Assembly: GCA_028534125.1 (NCBI GenBank)
Contig: CM052829.1
Span: forward strand, 38,936,001-39,000,000
Direction of reading: 5' to 3'
DNA from: Lama glama
Taxonomy: Eukaryota
Length of the DNA stretch: 64,000 bases
Of the stretch, positions 14,400 to 48,794 are shown one piece after another. Each line of letters starts with the position of its first letter. The first letter of the stretch is position 1. The notes under the pieces were generated by a model. That model had not been told where the DNA came from and searched no databases. It saw nothing but the letters and a program-made list of their open reading frames with translations. Both the position numbers and the translations under genes were made by a program.

Positions 14400-16480
14400 G
14401 CAAAAATTTGTGGAAAATAACAACTACTTCTGTGCATTCTTATCTAGCTTAAAATATAAAACATTATCCTGGTCTATATATAGTTTAGTTTTGTATGTTT
14501 TTTCAAGTTGATATAAATGGGAGTCGTGATAATAATTCCACCAGCAGTGTTTACGTTCTGATTGTTCCACATACTTGTCAACATTTGATACTGATGGACT
14601 TTAAAATTTTGCTTTTCTGGTGTTTGGAAATGGTATTTTGTGATTTTAATTAGCATTTCCTTGATAACTAACAAGATTGAATATCTTTCTGTATTCTTTT
14701 ATGATACATTCTTGTTTCCTTTTCAGTGATGCCTATTTTTCTTTTGGGTTATTTGTATTCTTCTTAAAATATACAGAAATTTTTCATGTATTTTGGATTA
14801 TAATTCTTTGTCAGTTATGCTTTGCAAATAGCTTTTCTCGGTCAAGCTTAACATTTTCACATCCTTTGTCATATATATTTTGGAGGTCTTATCTACAATC
14901 TGCAAGTGAATAAACTTAAGTGTATAGAATTATATACATACAGACCCATATAGCCATCACCTAAATCAGTATATAAAGTGTAGTACTCCAAGACTACAGT
15001 TAACCTCCATTAAAAATAAATAAATAAATCTAATTACCTCCCCCAGCCAAAAAAACCAAAGAATTCAAAAAGAAAAGAAAAGAAGTGCTAGTGTCTTTTG
15101 CTCATTTTTGGAGGGAGATTGTCAGTCTATCTGATTTTGATTTGTATTTCTTTATGTATTATGGATTCAAGTCCATTGTCAGACATATGTAATAGCTACT
15201 TTTGGTATGACTTACCCTTTCCTCTCTACATGTTGTCTTTTGATAAACAGAAGTTCTTAAGTTTTAATGAAGTCCAATTAAAGAAAAATTTTTGATGGTA
15301 AATGTTTTTTAATGAAACCCTTTAGAAAATATTCCAAGTTGTAATCTCCCAGCCTCTCCCTAGAAGTAACCACTATCCTGATTTTTTAAATAATCAGATA
15401 TTTATTTTTCTTTCAGTTTCCATACTAAGATATGCCATCCTAAATGATGTAGTTTTGCCTGCTTTTGAACTTTATATGAATGGAATCTTTATGCATTGTT
15501 CTGTCATGTTTCTTTTAGTTGATGTTATGTTTTTGTGATTCATCCATGTTGTTTTATCTTTTTAAAAAAAAAATTAGATTTTTCTAATTTTTTTTTTCCC
15601 CAGAAGCTTAGACGTTTAATTGATTTGCCTGTTTATTTTGTGTAGCAACTTTACTGAACTTTCTAACTATAGTTTATCTGTAAATTCTTTTGGATTTTTT
15701 TTTCTATAGATGATTGTATCATCAGCAAATTATAAAAGTCTAGTTTTTCCATTACAATCCTTATACCTTGTATATGCAGTCAACATTTTCATTCATTTCT
15801 GCTTTATTGTGCTGGCTAGGACTTCCAGAACAATGTTAAATAGGTCTAAGAGTAGTAAATATGCGTATTTGTTTCTAGTTTTAAAAGAATCTCCATTGCT
15901 TATGATGTTTATTATATTTTTTGTAGATATATTTTAGTAGAATAAGGTTTCCCTTTTTCCATTTTGATATGACCATTTAAACAAATCATGAATGGAATGA
16001 ACTTACTCAAGTGCTTTTTCTGCATTTATTGAGATAGTCATATAGTTTTTCCCTTTAATCTGTTAATGTGGTAAATAAAATTATGTTTTCAAACATTAAA
16101 CTATTTTTTTCCTGTGGTAAACCTAACTTGAACTTTATATAGTACCTTTTATATTCATTGTCAAAAGTAGATTTATAGTGAAGCTAAGAAAATTGAATCT
16201 TCAGGACCCCACCCTTGTCCAAGTATATATGTGTATTTCTGCTCCCAAATGATTCCATTTTAATTTTATTCTAGGATTGTAAGATTGTTTAAATGTCATT
16301 TAGGGCAAGATTTATCTTTTTTCTTCCCCAAAAATTTTCTTGGAGGTTTGATTACATTTTCACTTTTAGATATAGTTTTAAGTCAACTGATTCAACTTTT
16401 TTTTTTTAAGATCCTCTGGGCTTTTGATTGAGTTTATATTAAATTTATGGTTGAATCTGGGAAGAACTGACATCTATACA
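14400..16480 (-). mobile_element. Old L1M (L1MB/MC/ME-type) fragments, antisense
   Basis: ttttaattagcatttccttgataactaac; ttattgtgctggctaggacttccagaacaatgttaaatagg; ttttctgcatttattgagat; gggaagaactgacatc. Confidence 0.8.
15003..15083 (+). mobile_element. 5'-truncated Vic-1-like SINE (3' half only)
   Basis: acctccattaaaaataaataaataaatctaattacctccccc plus A-rich tail; matches the 3' halves of the copies at 38623 and 48795. Confidence 0.75.
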
Positions 16481-16484
16481 ATCT

Positions 16485-17634
16485 GGCCATGGTGGGCTAA
16501 AAGGGACCGGACTTACCCCTTGCCTTAGACAACTAAAAGCAGGACAAAATATATAAAACAATGATTTTCAGACATTAGACAACAGACAGTGCAGAACTGT
16601 GACCCTTAAGAGAGGGAAATAAATGAGGAAGGGCCTGCAAATGCCCCAGTTTGCTACCTGTAGAGAATTTCAGGTGACAAGGCAGTGGGGGGAGAACCCA
16701 GACAGAGCCTGATGGGTGGACTAGCTAAATATCTCAGAATTCAGGGATTCCAAGGCCGCTAGAATTCACAAGGCAGAGTACCAGAGGAAAGAACTGAAGA
16801 GAGCTCTGGAGTTCCACAGAGGGTTCTCCTCAAATCTGCTGCTGAGTAATGATCGGCATGCACGTGTGAGGAAAGCTGCCTAAGGACAGGGAAGGAACTT
16901 CATGAAAATATCAAGCAAACAATGCCTAAACCTCATACAGGGCTGAGGACAGTTTGTGTTCTCACCGTCCTGTGAGGAAAGGCCTAACACACAGGTTATC
17001 AAGGGGAATACTCACAAGGAGTACTCGGTGGTAGGACAAATTAGTCCTATACCACCAAGCTGTTCTGGTCCTACCTGAAAAGCAAGCATCAAAAGACTCT
17101 TTCCAAGTAACTTAACCATGTCCCAGAGCAATACTGAGAATATTTATAAGAATACAAAAGCATCCAGGACTCAGCAAAGCAAAATTCACAAATCAGGCAC
17201 CGATTTAAAAATTAACAGGCGTAACAAAAAAGCAAGAAAATGCAACTCATAATTGGAAAAAACCAATCAATTGAAATTAATCCAGAAATGACATAGATGA
17301 AAAATTAGTAGAAAGCACATTGAAATGCTATTGAAAATATACTCCATATATTCAATAAGGTAGGAAAGCATGAACTTTATAAAAAGAGAAAAGATATTCT
17401 AAAAATCACAAATCAAGCTTTAGAGATGAAAATAGTGGCTAGGGTTAACAGCATGTTAGAAATTGCAGAGCAAAAGACTAGGGAACTTGAAGATACTGCC
17501 ATAAAAACTATCCAAAGTGAAACAAAGTGAAGATAAAGCATTAATGGGGGCAGAGGTGGAACAATTTATAGAGGCGAAATATATGTCTAATTAGAGTCCC
17601 AGAAGGAGAAGTGGACCAAGTGGGGTCCAAAAAA
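16485..17634 (+). mobile_element. Old L1M 5' region/ORF1, left part (interrupted at 17634)
   Basis: gcaaaattcacaaatc; ttgaaattaatccagaaatgacatagatg; gaacttgaagata...aaaactatccaaagtgaaac; ctaattagagtcccagaaggagaa are L1M ORF1 hallmarks. Confidence 0.8.
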
Positions 17635-18886
17635 GGTGCCCGGAGAAACAATGTCTGGACGCCCCTGCCCAGCGATGAGAGGCTGGGGGGTTACGTGCGT
17701 GCGTCGCGCCGGGAGCGCGGGGAGCGCGGGGCGGGGCGCGGCAGGTGCGCGGAGGAGCGATGGCGGCGGCCTGAACTCACCTAGCAGCGCGGTGGTTTCC
17801 GGCCTGGTCAGGCTCGGGGTTCTGTGAGTGAACAGTAAGTACGGGCCAGAGAGCCCAAAGAGGCGCGAGAGAGGGAATGAGGGGCTGGGGGATGCCGGCA
17901 CCACCGGGCTTGGTGACCTGGTTGTGAGGGGCAGGGGCTGGCATGAGGTGAGGGGCGGCTGTGAGGGTCTAAGGTAAGCGGAGCAGGGGAGCCGGGAGTG
18001 AGCTGGCTGAGTAAAGAGCTGAGTTGTATGAGAGGCGGGGATGCTTTATGAGTATGAGAGGCCAAATGGAAGGGACTGTGAACACGCTTTTCTGAGGGGC
18101 TGGGGCTCCTGTGGACAGGAGTGAGGGACAGCCCTGGCACCAGGGTGAGGGGCTGGGGCCTGTGCGTGGTCGGGGTGGGGGTGGGGGGACAAGGGGGAGG
18201 ACAGGGCGAAGGCGAGAGCATGCCGCTGGTGGTGAACTGGGAGGGAGTTGAGGGTAGGGCATGGAGGAAGGAATGCGGCTTGTGAGACTTGGGTCAGGGT
18301 GAGAGGTTGGTTCTGAAGCCTCCTTCAACAGAGTGTCCTGCCTAGTGAGAGCAATAGTTTTGGATTGAGTAGCACAACTTGGGTACAAGTGTTGTGCACT
18401 TGGCTGTCTCCTGCATGGGCTCTGCCTATTTTGGAGGACCGAAAAAAGAAGGCAGCATGGGCAACAATAACAATGATAATGAAAATCATTTGTGAGGCTT
18501 AGTCTTCAGCTGGAGTCATCATTGGCATCCCTTGTTCCCTCAAGTTCCTCCTTGGGACTGCACACTGGAAGGTGGTCCCTCTCATAGAGATTTTTTGGCT
18601 GTTACTGCCTGTATTTGTTTTCTCTCCACCTGCTTCTGGGCACCCTTGCTTCGCTGCTGCTCCCTACCTGGCTGAGCTATGGGGCATTGATGGTTGGTCC
18701 TCTGTGTTGGGCTGACCACTTTCAGTTGCTAATTCTACTTATATGTAAATCACATGGTTTGTTACATACACTGCTGCATTTACACTCCCAAACAGGATGG
18801 TTTTGCTCTCATTTTCTTACAATTAAAGTAAAAAAAAAAGACTAATTTGTTTATAATAAACTACTCATATTTAAAACATAAAAAAA
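17635..18886 (+). other. Foreign GC-rich insertion in L1 ORF1: probable retroposed/duplicated 5' end of an unidentified CpG-island gene (first exon plus intron-like sequence, AATAAA, A-tail)
   Basis: Abrupt GC jump; L1 ORF1 is continuous across it; donors at 17835 (ACA|GTAAGT) and 17974 (AAG|GTAAGC); AATAAA 18855-18860 followed by A-rich 18873-18886. Confidence 0.6.
17690..17840 (+). promoter_or_regulatory. CpG-island-like promoter/first-exon core
   Basis: Dense CpG; GC box GGGGCGGGGC 17728-17737; YY1-like GATGGCGGC 17759-17767; ETS-like TTTCCGG 17796-17802; 5' splice site GTAAGT 17835-17840. Confidence 0.55.
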
Positions 18887-19535
18887 TTATGTCTGAAAAA
18901 TTCCGAATTTGATAAACGTTATAAATCTAGAGATCCAAGTTCAATTAACACAAAGAACAAGAAACACGAAGAAAACTTCACCAATGCCTATCACAATCAA
19001 ATTGTTTAAAACTGATGATTAAAAAAATCTTAAAAGTGGTAAAAAAAAAAAACCAACATATAAACAATGTAAGCAGAATATAGTTGGGCAATGTCTCTAA
19101 AGTACTGAAAAAATAATTCATCAACATAGAATTCCATGCCTGCGAAATTATCTTTCAAAAATAAAGGCAAAATAAGGACGTCTTCAAACAAGCTAAAAAA
19201 GTTTACTACCAGCAGACTTACAGTATAAGAAATGTTCATTGAAGCCCTTCAGACAGAAAGAAAATGATCCCAGGTGTAAGTCTGGATCTACACAAAGGAA
19301 TGAAGAACACCAGAAAGAGTTAATAGGTACATAAACATAAATATTGTTTAAACAAATCTCTTGAAGTGATAATTGAATGCTTAAAGCTAAAATAATAACA
19401 ATATATTGTGAGTTTTATAACAACAACACATGTAGCTTATACAATATATAAAACAACAGCACAAAGCCTGGGAGAGGGTGATTAGACATACACAGCTGGG
19501 AGATTCTTATACTATTTGTGAAGTGGTAGACAATA
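18887..19535 (+). mobile_element. Old L1M ORF1, right part (continuation of 16485-17634)
   Basis: ttatgtctgaaaaattccgaatttgataaacgttataaatctagagatccaag...aagaaaacttcaccaatgcctatcacaatcaaattg...gaaattatctttcaaaaataaaggcaaaataaggac. Confidence 0.8.
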
Positions 19536-39102: not shown

Positions 39103-41001
<1,899 letters not shown>

Positions 41002-43362
41002 TTAATACTCTTTTGACCTCCTATAAACTTAGACTTCTTAAGTGTCAAAATGAATAAAATTATTTCTAACATCTGAAAAAAATACAACTATTTTTATTAA
41101 CAGTCAGAGGGAAAAAATAGGGACATATTCAGGACTTAAGGGAATGCTCTATCCTAATTTTTGTATAAAGGACTTAAATAAGTATAGGTAATTGCACAAT
41201 AAAATTCAACTAGATGAATCAAGAAAGAAACCTTTTACTTCATGTGTATATTATCTTGATTTGGATTTAGAAAGCCTTAATTAACTGGAATTCAGTAAAG
41301 TGAAATTGTAAGGAACCATCGTTTGCTTTCTTAGGATTTCTCTGTAAGAAGAAGAAAGACAAATCACAGAAATTGGCAGGATGCATGGTGGTCCAATTGA
41401 GAAAAGATTGTGACTGCACCATATTTCTGCTAAGGGTCTATGAGTAGCTCTAAAATACAAACAAGAAACAACAACTCATTTCAAAGACTTTAAAAGACAA
41501 CATAATAATTGCAGGGTGTTTCTTAGGGTCAACGTAGGTTCACATCAATATGTCATACTTTTCCAGATAAATCTACACAACCATTTAATTGTAATTGTTA
41601 TCAGTGACTCTAAGGCACTGTAACATTTTCTGTCATAAAAGAGGTTAAAGCAATTTTTATATACTATATTTACTAAAGTAGGAAAACTACTAAAATATTA
41701 GAAAAATGATCAACCATTAAGTTTGAAATAAAAAAGGATTTCGTTTGAGTCCGTCTGAAGTTTTCATTCTTTAGAAGATCTTGTTCCTCTAATTTCAGGC
41801 AGTCACTGACTTAATTTTACATTTTGTTTGAGGCCAAGTATTGTAATTGTAAAATGCATTTCAATAGATAAAAGCATAAGTTATTTAGGAATTACTAGAA
41901 ATCTAAATAAAATTTAAAGTTTCAAAATAAGAGTGTCATGGACTTTAAACCACCTTTATGCTCCCAAGTTAATTATACATGTAGTCATGACCATATGCTT
42001 TTCACAATGTATACACTGTGTTTTAAACTGTTATCAATGCTCATTCAGTCAACAGGGAAGGTCTCAAATCCCTGGAAAATATTATCTGTCTGATTTTGTA
42101 ATATCCATAACAAAGGAAATTTAGCCAGGCATCCCATTCTAGATTTACTGTGGACGACAGGTTTGACAGGAAGAAGAATATGATTTACAAATTGAAGAAC
42201 AGAATATCAAAGTGAGTAGATATTTTTTAAAAACATTTAAAATAGACCTCTGTATAAAAAGCTGATAAAAGTATTATATGAAAGATGGGAGCTATCTCTT
42301 TAAGTTGATTTATGTGGTCAGTATTAACATTTAATATATCAATATTGTGTGTGCTATATGTTCTTTGGTAATCTTCTGTTTTCATGGACAAGCTCAGTAT
42401 ATAAATGTGCACCTATTGGCAGTAAATTCCGTCTTTCTCTTATGCCAGGCCTTAACAAATACATTTTGGATTTTAGGCATATATGCAGTGGGGGTTTTTT
42501 CCCCACAAATTAATTATTTTATAAAGATTCTATGAGGTCTCCTTGTTGTAAATATTATGAAAGTATGCTTAGAGCCTGTGGTGGCAGTGGGGAGGTATTG
42601 TCTATCAAAGGGAGACCATTTTCTTCTGGTGATTAACTCAGAATCACCAAGCAATACCCTTTGGGTCCAATTTCCTGATACGTGGTTTGCAGTGGCTAAT
42701 TGCTAAAGGACCTCTTTATGATTCTATAAAACAATTATCTCTGAAATTTCATTTTCAAACAAAAAAATACAGGAAATTTGGGATCTTTTAAAATAGGAAC
42801 TTAAGAAAACAGGAGTTAGGAAAATATAAATGGATGTTAATCCAAGATATACCCTTTTATCATGAAAATTTTTACTCAGAACTAGGTAAAATTAGAATCC
42901 CAGCCTCAGTATCTGCATGTGTTGAATATTTTTTTGGTTTTAATATGCTTTAGTACACTGTTGTGCCAGCACTAACAAAATGAGTTTTCAAGCAATGGTG
43001 TTTTCCCTAAGGAGAAAATTAAATGCTGGTTTGGTCTGTGTAGGAAGTGTGTAGGCGGGACTCTCAACTTTCAGGAAAATTTCTGTTTTTATGAAAAGAT
43101 ATTTTCCAGCTTCCCTTTGAATTACTTGCCTGAAAACAGTGAAAAAGACTATGAAAATGGAATTGTCATGGTGACTTGCTTGATGGCAGAGGTGATCTGT
43201 GGCTGCTTCCACCTTTGCTGTAGTTGAGAGCAGAATCTAGGAGGAAAGAGAGAGGAGGTGTCACAGTAAGGTTGGGGAGGCAGTGGGCCCAAAGCTGCTT
43301 TAGAACGTGGTCTGATTGACAAGATCGCCTTGAGAGCTCTCGGTTGTTGACACCTGGTACCT

Positions 43363-43768: not shown

Positions 43769-46330
43769 CCAACCTATATAAATTTAAGGAATAAGTAAGC
43801 AGCAAAAATTCTGATTGTATTTGAGTCATTGCAAAATGAAATTTTTGTGTATTTGTTTGAAATGGAATTGAGTCGGGTTTCTTGTGATTTTATTTGTCAT
43901 CAAAGGAATTTTAACTAAAAACAGTTACATATACATATTTATTCACACACATATGTTGTTAAAAAAAAGTTAAACTATATGTAAATATGGACTATAAAAT
44001 GAAAGTCATTCTTCACTCTTCCCCCAGTTTTAGTTAGCTCCCTAGTGGTTAGCTGTTTGAAATCTAGCATTGTATTTTTACAGTGCTAGATTCTTCATGT
44101 TATACCATACAGACTTGAATGAGATTTCAGCCTGATACTGGAGTTTTGCTAAAACATCACATTTAGAGTCTGTGCTGTAGGACTGTGTTATAAGTGGGAT
44201 CTTACGCTTCTCTTACCTCAACACCATAGATAGGCTATAAAATAGGTAGGCCTTTTATTTTAAATTCCATCCTATAATAATTAATATGTTCAGTGTTTGG
44301 TATATTACCAATCAAGGATGTATTTTTGACAAATCAACTCTCAGTTGGGGTTTTTCCTGAGTTTGTTTTGTTTACTACTAAAAATATTGTCATAGTTAAT
44401 TAAAGAACAACTGACTACCTCTTGTTCAAGCTCTTTCCCAGGAATCAATAATAAATTACTTGCTTTCTATGAATTTTGAATTGGTTATAGTGGAGTGATG
44501 CCCTTTTTATGAGAACTGAGTGAATCAGTAGCTCTCCTACCTGATGTGGGATAGCCTGGGACTTGAGCTATTTAAAGACCTCTGAGTAGACAACCTGAAC
44601 ATTACAGAGTCCACACAAGAAAGCTCAAAGATTTGCTGACAGACATGCCCCCGAGTCCTTAGCTGTTGTTTGTGTACTCATGGTTCCTGCATAGTTCCAA
44701 TTACTTTTCTTGATGTTCCTAAATCCAAAGCAGATTGAAAGTCATAAAAATAAAACGTTTTACTCCTCCTATGCACAATGACAAGACTCAGAAGGAAAAT
44801 CTAAACACTTAGTGGCTAGGAGGGAACAAAAAAACTGTAAAATGCTACAGTAAGTTGAGGTCATTTTTATATTAGAGTATGGTGCTCAAAGTTGCCCTGA
44901 GTCATTTTGAAAAAAATTTTATTGTGATCAATATGCCCTGTTCAAGGTGGTAGAAAATTGTGTAATATATTTGAGAATTATTTCCATTTTAAAACTGTTC
45001 AGATATCAAAAGAAGTTGGTACTTACCAAGGGAAAGATTTAGCAATATCAAAAAATTTGCTCTCTACATAGTTGAGGTTTTATTAGTATCCTAATTAAAG
45101 TATGTCCTTTGCTAAGATGCCTCCATTTATGATTGTACCTTAATTTATTTTACTTAGTAAGATAAAGACTTCATTCCACTGGCTGAAAATAAATTATAAG
45201 GTGATATGAAAGAAAATGTTTGTAGTACTCTACGTAGGCACATTGAAAGCTATATTGTATCAGAATAAGGGATGCCCCCCAATATCAGCATACAGAATTT
45301 CACCAATGAATGGACTTAAGTGAAGGAACTTCATTAAAATGTACGCCTCTAATTTTTGGAGCTCTGCTACTAAAGGGGAAGCAAGAGATCATAAACAAGA
45401 TGGGATATTTTCGGCAATTTTAGATATCTTCTTTTCTTCAGCATCAGATCAATTGGTACATTGTTATTCAAATTGTATTCAAATAGCCCAATGTCAGTTT
45501 AGGATTGTAAAACAAAGGCCAAGAACATATCAGATGAATTTTTCAGTATTATGATTAAATCAAGGTGGTATTTGTCACGTTGAACAAAGAAATTGTCTAA
45601 TGAAATCTACCCCAAGTTTTGAACAGAGGGGTTTATGCTTGCCTGCTATTTGGCGATTCCTTGATAAGACATCTAAGTGTGAAATTATGTGCGCAATGTT
45701 AACAAAGAACAACTTATATTTGTAACAGCATTGTAGGCAGAGGTCTTTCAAAGTGCAAACATACCATCTTTCCTTCCCAAGGAGCTGTTGCGTTGCACAT
45801 ATGCTCTATAAATACCAAGTACAAGGAACCTGGTTTTTAATTACAAAGTAAAATACCATTCCAGAATTGCATAATTGGTGGTTGCCTTTTGCAATGCAAT
45901 GAACATAAGGGAACCTGACATTAAATGTTTGATGTGTTGCCATGACATTTTCTGAAATTTTATTTTGCGCCACTTTTAAGCTGCAAACTATGTTAAATTT
46001 GAATTCCTTGGTGGGTAACAGAGTGATACAGAATTAAAGAATCTAACTGATGTTGGGATGCCTATGCTCATAGATTGTACAGTTCAGATTTTAGAAAAAA
46101 AGGAAATACAGAAATAGAGATACACTAGGGTCTTTATTCTCTCCTTACAGTAGTTATATGTTTTTCTGGATATAGAGGCCTTTTAGTCGGGGAGGGATGT
46201 CTCTAGCTTTCCCTCTGAATAAAGGGAAAGATAACAGAGTGGAGGAAAAGACAGTGGCAGTCACTGCCCACCACATTTGAATGTGCAGGCCACTAAGTAA
46301 AGAGTGTCACAGACCGTGCAGTGTGTATAT

Positions 46331-46527
46331 ATTTGTCGCTCCGTATACACAAGGGGATTTCACATGGATACCAAAATCCATAGAAGCTCAAGTCTGTTAC
46401 GTAAAATGGTGTAGTGCTGCTGGGCCTGTGAGCCGCGGGCTCCGCCTCCATGAGCGCTGCATCCGCGGATTCAGCAGCGCGCGCAGAATCCGGGCACTCG
46501 GAACCCGCGGATTTGGAGGGCCGACTG
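46331..46527. mobile_element. Tigger/MER2-type MITE (~200 bp)
   Basis: gtcgctccgtatac...ggataccaaaatccatagaagctcaagtc...aaaatggtgtagt...acccgcggatttggagggccgactg (terminal inverted repeat). Confidence 0.75.
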
Positions 46528-48794
46528 TGTTCCTGTGCATCATACCATGGCTGGAAGGAGCAGTAGTAGGACTGCTGTTGTTCTAAATCCTCTCCGTTCT
46601 AAAGTGGCTTTTGGAGTTAATATTTGCTCAGCAGGGTTCAATACCACTGCAAATGATGGCAGCACCCCTGTAAACGGGAGGATAACGAACACCAGTTTCC
46701 CTCCTTCCTACACGTGCATTTTCTACACAGGCAACCTTTTATTCCCCACTCCCCAAAGATCTCTGACATCTTGAAAAGTGGAGAGCCCAAATCTTAAAGC
46801 TAGAAGACACTTCAAGACGTCCTCTGTTCTGTTGCTGTAAGAGCAAAAGGCAATTGGGTGTTAAATTTTCTTCCTCATAATAAAATAAGGAGAAAAATAA
46901 ATTCTCAATGGTGAAAATAAAAAATCTTGGGTTATTAATTTACTTATTCCTTCTTAAAGCACCTACCGAGACATAAGGAAAACAGCTCTTCCAGGGTGGG
47001 TAAAATATAACTTGAATACTTCATTAGTTCTGAATTCTTAATGTTCACGTAAGTGCTTAAAGTTCAAAGTAAGTACCGTCAGGAGTGCTGAGAATGAAAT
47101 GGAGCCTGAGGAGGTGGCGAACCACCAGCCCTGCCCAAGCAGCCCTTCATATTTCCCTAAATATTAGTGCTTTTCACTCAGTCACATTTTGGGGTTATTT
47201 CCTTTGCCCCAAACAGAACTTTTTGTTTTCAATGTTATTTATCATTCTGATGATCTAAACGTCAGAAGTAGGGTCACTTAAACACATGGATAACCTAGCT
47301 ATTTTGGCATTTTCCTTGATCTTAGAAACATTGTAAACAGAGCATGGCTGTTTCTGCCTTAATCTGCTGAGAAGTGCTCAAGGCCAACACTTAAATTCTC
47401 TGCCCCCCAACTGCCCCCACCAACCTTGCTTTTTAAAAATGATGCTTTAGTTATTTATTTAAAATATTAAGTTGTTTTTGTTACTGATATAACCAATAAT
47501 ATTTCTTGCATTTATAAAGCAGTATATCTATAAGATATTTATGAAGAAGTATTTATGTTTGCTGTTTTAGAGGGAAGTAAAAGCCTTCCTCAGAATCAGT
47601 CAGCTTCGGCTAGAATCCTAGAGCTAATGACCATTACAGTGTTCCTTTTTGACTATTGCTCTGGGTACCATAAAAAAATTAATCTGTTTCCTAACTAATA
47701 TTCCCCGTTTATATCTTCTCTTTAAATATCTTGCAAAAGTGCACCCAAATTAATTCTATGATGACATGCATGTAGATTGGGTTAGTTTTGAAGGCGTCTA
47801 ATTTAGCCAAATGATTCCACTTAAAAAAATTATGAGTGCTATTTTTTATTGGGTTGAACACCGGAATAATTGATTTAATTACATGTATAAGTGGCTTGAA
47901 GTAATGTTGCAGATGGACAATTTAAAATTATATAAAATTTCCTTGCTTATGTACATTTTTCAAGAGTGATTGCTGATTTAGTGAAACATCTATAAAACAT
48001 AGAGTCAGAAGAGGGCTGAAGATTCTGAGGTTGAAAATGAGAGTTTTAGGAGATGTTATAATCCCAGTTATGTTTCTGTCTGATAACAACATGCAGAAAT
48101 GGGATCTGTTCTGCCAAAGGGAAAAAATATACTCTTCAATGGAGAGTAAATATATATTTTTGCAGTCAGGATTGAAAACATTCCTTTCAGTAAAGGATTG
48201 GCAGCTTTAATTGGCATTGGAAAGCTAAATTTAGCCATTAGACAAATGTAGCAACTGTATTTCACTCAATACACATTTATGCAGCTTTTTCAATAGCGAT
48301 GATTTATACTGCCTTGACCCAGGACACTGAAACATGTAAGCAGAGCATCTCATTTTCTGAAATTAAAACAAAACCAAAAACAGAATCTATCTAAGGAGAT
48401 AAACCAATTTAGAAAAGACCACATCAGTTCAGATGGAGTGAAAATGGCATACGTGATAGATTTTGGCATTCACAGACTATGGCTGTGGAAATTATGAGCC
48501 AATTTTATTTCCTGTTGTTTACAGTGGACTAATGGCATAGAAAGTTCCATAATCTCAGTTAAATTTAATTCCTTATTCATGGTTCTTGGCATATATACCA
48601 AAATATTTGTTGAATTTTTTTGAAGGAATGAATGACACTGAATTGGAGAAAAATTCAAACTGGTTTTATGGGTATTTAGAATCATATTTGATTTTCTCTA
48701 CACCACTAATGTTATTATGAAATTTATCAGCAGTAAGCTATCATGATTATAATATGAGCTTATTTACATAAAACACAGTATAAAAAGCTGACTT

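Follow-up and report, generated by a model that had tools for sequence, protein, structure and literature searches.

A probable retroposed, unspliced 5' end of an FHIP1B-type gene, carrying its CpG island, inside a decayed L1 of Lama glama

In the 64,000-nucleotide stretch of Lama glama DNA analysed here (the window), an L1 element is interrupted by the 5' end of a cellular gene. Positions 17658-18880 (+ strand) are a copy of C36:40835509-40836720 (C36:40.8355-40.8367 Mb), with the CpG-island start, exon 1 and 1.04 kb of intron 1 of a gene that we take, from its peptides, to be of the FHIP1B/FAM160A2 type. We consider it likely that the insert is an L1-retroposed, unspliced and prematurely polyadenylated 5' RNA of this gene, the head of which has been unmethylated in the germline since.

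Source gene, host L1 and junctions

A search of the species' own genome with 17635-18886 as the query returned three matches, namely the window itself, a 53-nt piece on C25 and the C36 locus. Among these three candidates, the C36 locus is the sole full-length paralogue (79% blast identity, query positions 21-1246); copy and source differ by 193 mismatches in 1186 aligned columns (16%). The C25 piece was rejected as a source, being a chance GC-rich similarity within another promoter. An earlier note, made from the letters alone, had predicted that BLAST would meet the transcription start, exon 1 and intron 1 of another gene, and the locus found on C36, a different contig, is of this kind. The exons of the source gene match RAI16-like PF10257 and DUF5917 in Pfam, and its start codon lies ~9.4 kb beyond the source stretch. 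Upstream, on the opposite strand, is a cyclic-nucleotide-gated channel gene, presumably CNGA4 from its peptides.

The source stretch makes up the downstream half of a CpG island; GC boxes and a CCAAT box closely precede it. The CCAAT box was narrowly missed by the copy, the 5' end of which falls in the promoter right after this box. The first ~70 nt of the copy would lie upstream of the main start of the parent and were presumably transcribed there. Copy and genomic source are collinear over the whole of 17658-18880, with no intron removed. The insert had been described as not repeat-like, which holds for its single-copy, gene-derived body and fails for the final ~45 nt. These belong to a repeat fragment that extends further within the source intron, a reversed LINE 3' end at 18835..18880 (- strand, left edge approximate; 40/40 scored genome matches). 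The alignment marks the window as the derived side and C36 as the source, because the repeat fragment is cut at the 3' end of the copy and continuous in the source.

The host L1 has decayed on both sides of the insert. Its left part, 16480..17657 (+), holds the 5' region and the first half of ORF1 (blastn to L1 relatives; tblastn), and its right part, 18896..19528 (+), holds the remainder of ORF1. Young L1 ORF1 frames match 17357-17634 up to the GVPEGE motif in tblastn and continue from 18903. When ten ORFs of the window were searched against Pfam, the amine oxidase retrocopy alone gave a match, and the two host pieces taken by themselves gave none. We aligned the flanks separately to 48 L1 relatives, of which 28 projected both sides and 20 did not; in 19 of the 28, positions 17653 and 18891 project on the same base (offset <=1). 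The alignment to relatives thus makes both flanks one ORF1, in line with the insertion into a collinear ORF1 that had been proposed. The left boundary had been placed 23 nt too far left, at 17634: the L1 reaches 17657, and homology to the source begins at ~17658. The nucleotides 17635-17657 are target and not insert, because at 17639, 17641 and 17649 the orthologous contig of sequencing run X2 has the letter that most L1 relatives have.

About 16 nt of L1 sequence occur on both sides of the insert (17642-17657 and 18880-18895), with 11/16 letters identical. The left copy (17642..17657, +) is recognised from the majority letters of L1 relatives and has an uncertain left edge, which gives a length of 10-16 nt; the right copy (18880..18895, +) comes from the flank projection and is merged with an A-run. 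Both carry TGTCT, otherwise seen in 1/41 L1 relatives. By these comparisons the insert is flanked by a decayed target-site duplication (TSD) of 10-16 nt, where the earlier note had seen no clear long one. At the 5' junction the target shares CAATG..CTG with the source, which makes the exact place uncertain by ~9 nt. At the other end, the A-run at 18880-18886 (seven A's) overlaps the right TSD, and no poly(A) tail can be told apart from it. At 17637-17648 the L1 relatives are T-rich and then read GAAGAAA; taking a TT/AAAA-like sequence as the L1 endonuclease consensus, an endonuclease-type target fits with a 16-nt TSD and less well with a shorter one.

That the insert is an assembly artefact, or a known LTR or L1 5'UTR, has a negligible probability. 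The DNA run X15 gave no matching contig (its records are filtered), which would suit an artefact. The divergence of 16% from the source speaks against an artefact and a known repeat alike, and six runs from two studies contain 0.88-0.97 of 121 sampled words. Junction-spanning contigs, named beforehand as the check for misassembly, were sought, and RNA contigs cross the left junction as well as the right one, with two studies contributing. An LTR or L1 5'UTR would be multi-copy; the insert is single-copy besides its source and without terminal repeats.

The 3' end, age and route of insertion

The first AATAAA in the copy, 18855..18860 (+), is the likely poly(A) signal used, judging from its position and from the repeat relatives. 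The copy stops 20 nt past it, at 18880, and a random point of intron 1 has a 2.1% chance of lying 10-30 nt after AATAAA or ATTAAA. The A-run therefore starts 20 nt after the signal (18880-18886) and not 12 nt after it, as had been read before. A T-run and TTTATT open the repeat relatives, as in a LINE 3' end read in reverse, and we take the fragment to be L1M. In 24 repeat relatives, some of them near-duplicates, AATAAA occurs in 6 within the 32 nt examined, and the others mostly carry one-letter variants of it (by eye). The source today reads AACAAA at this position, which is likely a later change, because the relatives mostly have AATAAA or a one-letter variant. Another AATAAA lies in the source ~50 nt before the end. 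ATTAAA at 18822 was rejected as the original signal: both the source and run X8 carry G at this place, and by this comparison it is a recent change in this lineage. Both motifs stand where the earlier note had put them, as do GTGAGT at 17824, GTAAGT at 17835 and GTAAGC at 17974.

The non-CpG K2P distance between copy and source amounts to 0.17 over the whole length and to 0.19 within the distal intron. Between the window and its orthologous contigs in runs X2 and X8 the difference is 3.3-3.4%, and the divergence between copy and source is 5-6 times as large. At general mammalian substitution rates, these distances would place the copy roughly 40-90 million years ago; the earlier idea of a young insertion is refuted by them. 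A metagenome scan with a 23-nt head motif for outgroup orthologues in host DNA gave 0 matches. Run X8 has a 23-nt tandem duplication at window position 18384.

We regard an origin by L1 retroposition of an early-ended, unspliced transcript as probable, with good confidence. The parent lies elsewhere and the copy is confined to transcribed sequence, a TSD flanks it, and a poly(A) signal precedes its 3' end, as in other L1 retrocopies. The retroposed, intron-retaining, prematurely polyadenylated 5' transcript of the earlier note is upheld by the single-copy source, the TSD and the end after a poly(A) signal. Processed and semi-processed pseudogenes have lost at least one intron, and the copy does not belong to them. 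As it has no spliced junction, the RNA intermediate is a step that we infer.

A DNA-level event could also have produced the insert, if a 1.2-kb piece of the FHIP1B promoter had been patched into a break of the L1 by templated repair, without target-primed reverse transcription. All intron sequence is kept, a clear tail is absent and the 5' junction has microhomology, as such a repair would leave them. We nevertheless find it quite improbable: a 10-16 nt TSD lies at an A-rich site, both ends fit transcript ends (a promoter on one side and a point 20 nt after AATAAA on the other, with the low chance given above), the copy stands in sense orientation, and terminal repeats are absent. In the retroposition that we favour, an FHIP1B RNA would have started upstream of the main start and carried the GC box and the CRE-like motif. 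It would have escaped splicing and been cut and polyadenylated where the poly(A) signals of intron 1 first cluster, inside the reversed LINE fragment. L1 proteins would then have primed its reverse transcription at an A-rich site in the dead L1 ORF1.

Fate of the CpG island and RNA at the copy

The transplanted CpG island covers 17658..17990 (+; 70% GC, 31 CpG, o/e 0.87). Its head, 17658-17920, has 71% GC, 29 CpG and an o/e of 0.95, and bears out the earlier description as CpG-dense; its composition is that of a CpG island by the limits that we assume for one (>200 bp, GC >50%, o/e >0.6). The stretch 17501-18000 is the densest in CpG of the window, with 34 against 436 in all 64 kb. Two motifs are shared with the source, TTACGTG at 17691..17697 (+), which we take to be CRE-like, and a GC box at 17728..17737 (+). 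An upstream ORF of four codons (MAAA stop) at 17760..17774 (+) is identical in the source and overlaps a core that we presume to be YY1-like. Three G-quadruplex-like runs (17711, 18172, 18239) occur in the copy; searched with the same pattern, the source does not have them.

The CpG positions of the source have fared differently along the copy. In 17655-17830, 18 of 24 source CpGs are kept and 0/24 became TG/CA, at a non-CpG divergence of 12.6%, and 17831-17990 keeps 5/7. In 18301-18880 none of the four is kept, and 4/4 became TG or CA. Between these parts, 17991-18300 has 9 CpGs in the copy vs 4 in the source. As a control for CpG decay, we used the younger monoamine oxidase (MAO) retrocopy in the same window, which has a non-CpG divergence of 4.9% and in which 22/58 parent CpGs became TG/CA. 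This processed pseudogene lies at window 39200-41100 (- strand), and its parent exons at C37:29.02-29.09 Mb match it at 86-100% per exon. The difference between the head and the control is marked (Fisher p 1.9e-4), and the substitution pattern shows that the head was spared methylation-caused CpG decay. Because no CpG of the 24 decayed and 22 of 58 did in the younger retrocopy, the head has very likely been unmethylated in the germline throughout its history, and the still unmethylated island of the earlier note gains support from this fate of its CpGs. A recent gene conversion from the source appears unlikely, because the head has diverged just as far as the G-rich intron. The copy thus provides a natural experiment, in which one sequence was placed at a new site, where its head retained the CpGs and its tail did not.

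The GC box that came along and the GC-skewed island probably kept the head unmethylated. Promoter activity, as in a retrocopy with an inherited parental promoter, is plausible; a GC box and a CRE-like motif were copied. That the island presently acts as a promoter is, in our estimate, only just short of an even call: RNA contigs give no start site, and DNA can enter RNA libraries. In the proposed course of events, the island would now be a weak orphan promoter of an unspliced non-coding RNA, with the chances about evenly balanced, and would supply no protein.

With the same origin, the island could instead be inert. Its sequence (GC box, GC skew) would resist methylation, biased gene conversion would add to its GC content, and any RNA would be read-through or noise; this is a serious possibility, though one that we place somewhat below even. 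A tie between GC-biased change and hypomethylated loci is described in the text consulted of PMC11161765. Sites with a strong base in the copy and a weak one in the source outnumber the reverse by 90 vs 63 (p 0.035), and the host L1 has 68 W>S vs 39 S>W changes, against 3336 vs 2906 in its relatives (p 0.04). The non-CpG divergence of the head is also not far under that of the distal part (16.6%), and contig depth in X2 is 6.8 for the copy vs 53 for the source, a poor measure. However, the recent polarised changes stand at 12 vs 7 (p 0.36), with no excess in the head alone (6 vs 7), and pairwise alignments may be biased in favour of the window; the signal of GC-biased change appears weak. Resistance to methylation is, moreover, compatible with promoter activity, and both can coexist.

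RNA was searched for in sequencing runs. Besides the six runs with high word shares, 14 RNA or probable RNA runs (5 studies) contain 0.12-0.22 of the 121 sampled words, and the 5 recorded as RNA among those 14 are labelled reproductive system. The small word shares of X3-X7 and X9-X14 were not counted as evidence. Contigs of four runs (X1, X2, X8 and X15, with filtered contig records) were compared with 17590-18940, and copy-type RNA contigs were found in two of them, X2 and X8, which belong to two studies. X1 and X15, the latter a DNA run, gave just unrelated 34-nt pieces from their filtered records. One X2 contig crosses the left junction (17590-17701), and another (17769-18076) reads through every donor unspliced. 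The X8 contigs cover 18332-18589, 18681-18792 and 18779-18914, the last of which crosses AATAAA and the right junction. Two X8 contigs are led, in + orientation, by the letters of a template-switch oligo as given in the consulted part of 10.1101/2021.04.04.438388. Such leaders suggest that the RNA came from the + strand and had internal 5' ends, which can be artefacts. The RNA at the copy could also be read-through from elsewhere. The X2 contig over the left junction is 1302 nt long, runs ~1.2 kb leftwards from 17701, past the stretch compared, with a depth of 15.4 vs 6.8 for the contig inside the copy, and may reflect divergent transcription from the island.

The earlier note had gone further and proposed that the copy gives its first exon and donor to a chimeric transcript that splices to downstream acceptors. 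Donor-like sites do exist, two of them scoring above those of the source. Exon 1 of the copy ends in a donor cluster at 17824..17844 (+) with GT at 17824, 17835 and 17839 (rough donor scores), followed by the copied intron 1 (17839..18880, +), which starts G-rich and GC-skewed (skew 0.44) and is AT-richer in its distal part. The donor of the parent is probably the GT at 17839; a source-type RNA contig of X2 stops at the base equivalent to 17838, and such an end is a hint only. At this donor, the -1 G of the parent is A in the copy, which weakens it. The GTAAGC site at 17974..17979 (+) is, by comparison with X2, a recent gain in this lineage: the orthologous X2 contig has one A missing at the 17974 donor and the source letter at 17971. 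The contig over 17769-18076 is unspliced, 0 splice joints from the copy were seen among the filtered contigs of the four runs, and no downstream coding exon was found. A spliced chimera is therefore unlikely.

The neighbourhood was surveyed for partners of the copy. MARCKS is encoded on the - strand, and its start codon is 37 kb left of the copy, which is oriented away from that gene; a histone deacetylase exon lies further left. On the + strand up to C14:39.1 Mb there are 3 frames of at least 130 codons, none recognisable by eye. An exon scan of the window with rough splice weights gave no candidate; it recovered only part of the true FHIP1B exons and is insensitive. A coding chimera is unlikely on these grounds, and a spliced non-coding RNA is possible, given the filtering of contigs and the weak exon scan. 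In the interval from MARCKS to the window there is a frameshifted EEF1A-type retrocopy (L057:7800-9100; C14:38.9238-38.9251 Mb). Another CpG island, at L057:3000-3750 (C14:38.9190-38.9197 Mb), precedes the MARCKS start codon by ~2.5 kb and might send divergent RNA in the direction of the window. At window 46200-46650 there is a small CpG-rich patch with 15-16 CpG per 300 nt.

Relation to known retrocopies

The copy is an uncommon form of known kinds of retrocopy, resembling 3'-truncated, intron-retaining copies and also those with an inherited parental promoter. It preserves the start and end points of an ancient transcript and suggests a route by which a promoter and its CpG island move without coding sequence, namely as a retroposed, early-ended, unspliced first-intron RNA. 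Retrocopy catalogues that need lost introns, exon junctions or coding similarity would overlook such copies. On a bolder reading, which we rate well below even, the fossil RNA would have carried an active housekeeping promoter into the dead L1. There the promoter would have remained open, over tens of millions of years, as an orphan CpG island that either gives rise to non-coding RNA in reproductive tissue, perhaps on both strands, or influences MARCKS 37 kb away; unspliced 5'-end copies would then be an uncounted source of orphan CpG islands. With a single locus and a putative function, its weight is moderate. Literature on this locus or on the exact class was not found in open-access full text (supplements aside); further retrocopy cases are listed in the supplements of Okamura 2008 and Carelli 2016.

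TMF1 in CYBB: In the parts consulted of Kazazian 2014 (PMC4151081), the TMF1 insertion in CYBB is a semi-processed, 3'-truncated retropseudogene. As in our case, it retained intron sequence and is an L1-type copy of an RNA whose 3' end lay at a poly(A) signal within an intron. As described there, several introns were removed and the tail has 100 bp, whereas the FHIP1B copy, which is old and intergenic, has no spliced junction, coding sequence or distinct tail.

Retroposed promoters: Retroposed or inherited parental promoters are treated in the sections consulted of Okamura and Nakai 2008 (PMC2386082) and Carelli 2016 (PMC4772013), the latter giving ~3% of expressed retrocopies. As in the cases described, a CpG-island transcript that started upstream brings core-promoter sequence to a new locus. 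Those cases are spliced and coding with mapped start sites, whereas the FHIP1B copy is non-coding, unspliced and without a mapped start.

PPP1R26P1: In RB1 intron 2, PPP1R26P1 carries a differentially methylated island that gives an alternative RB1 transcript, and its parent is methylated, according to the portion consulted of Kanber 2013 (PMC3839921). Here, too, a truncated retrocopy brings a CpG island to a new site. The island of the FHIP1B copy differs from the one described in that it stems from the promoter of the parent and lies within no known host gene.

First-intron RNAs: Premature cleavage and polyadenylation in the first intron behind CpG-island promoters yields unstable RNA, mostly on depletion of U1 or the cap-binding complex, as the excerpt consulted of PMC7471841 has it. 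The FHIP1B copy has the shape of the RNAs described there, with a start, an unspliced exon 1 and an end at an intronic signal ~1 kb in. Unlike this unstable RNA, it would persist as a fossil in germline DNA.
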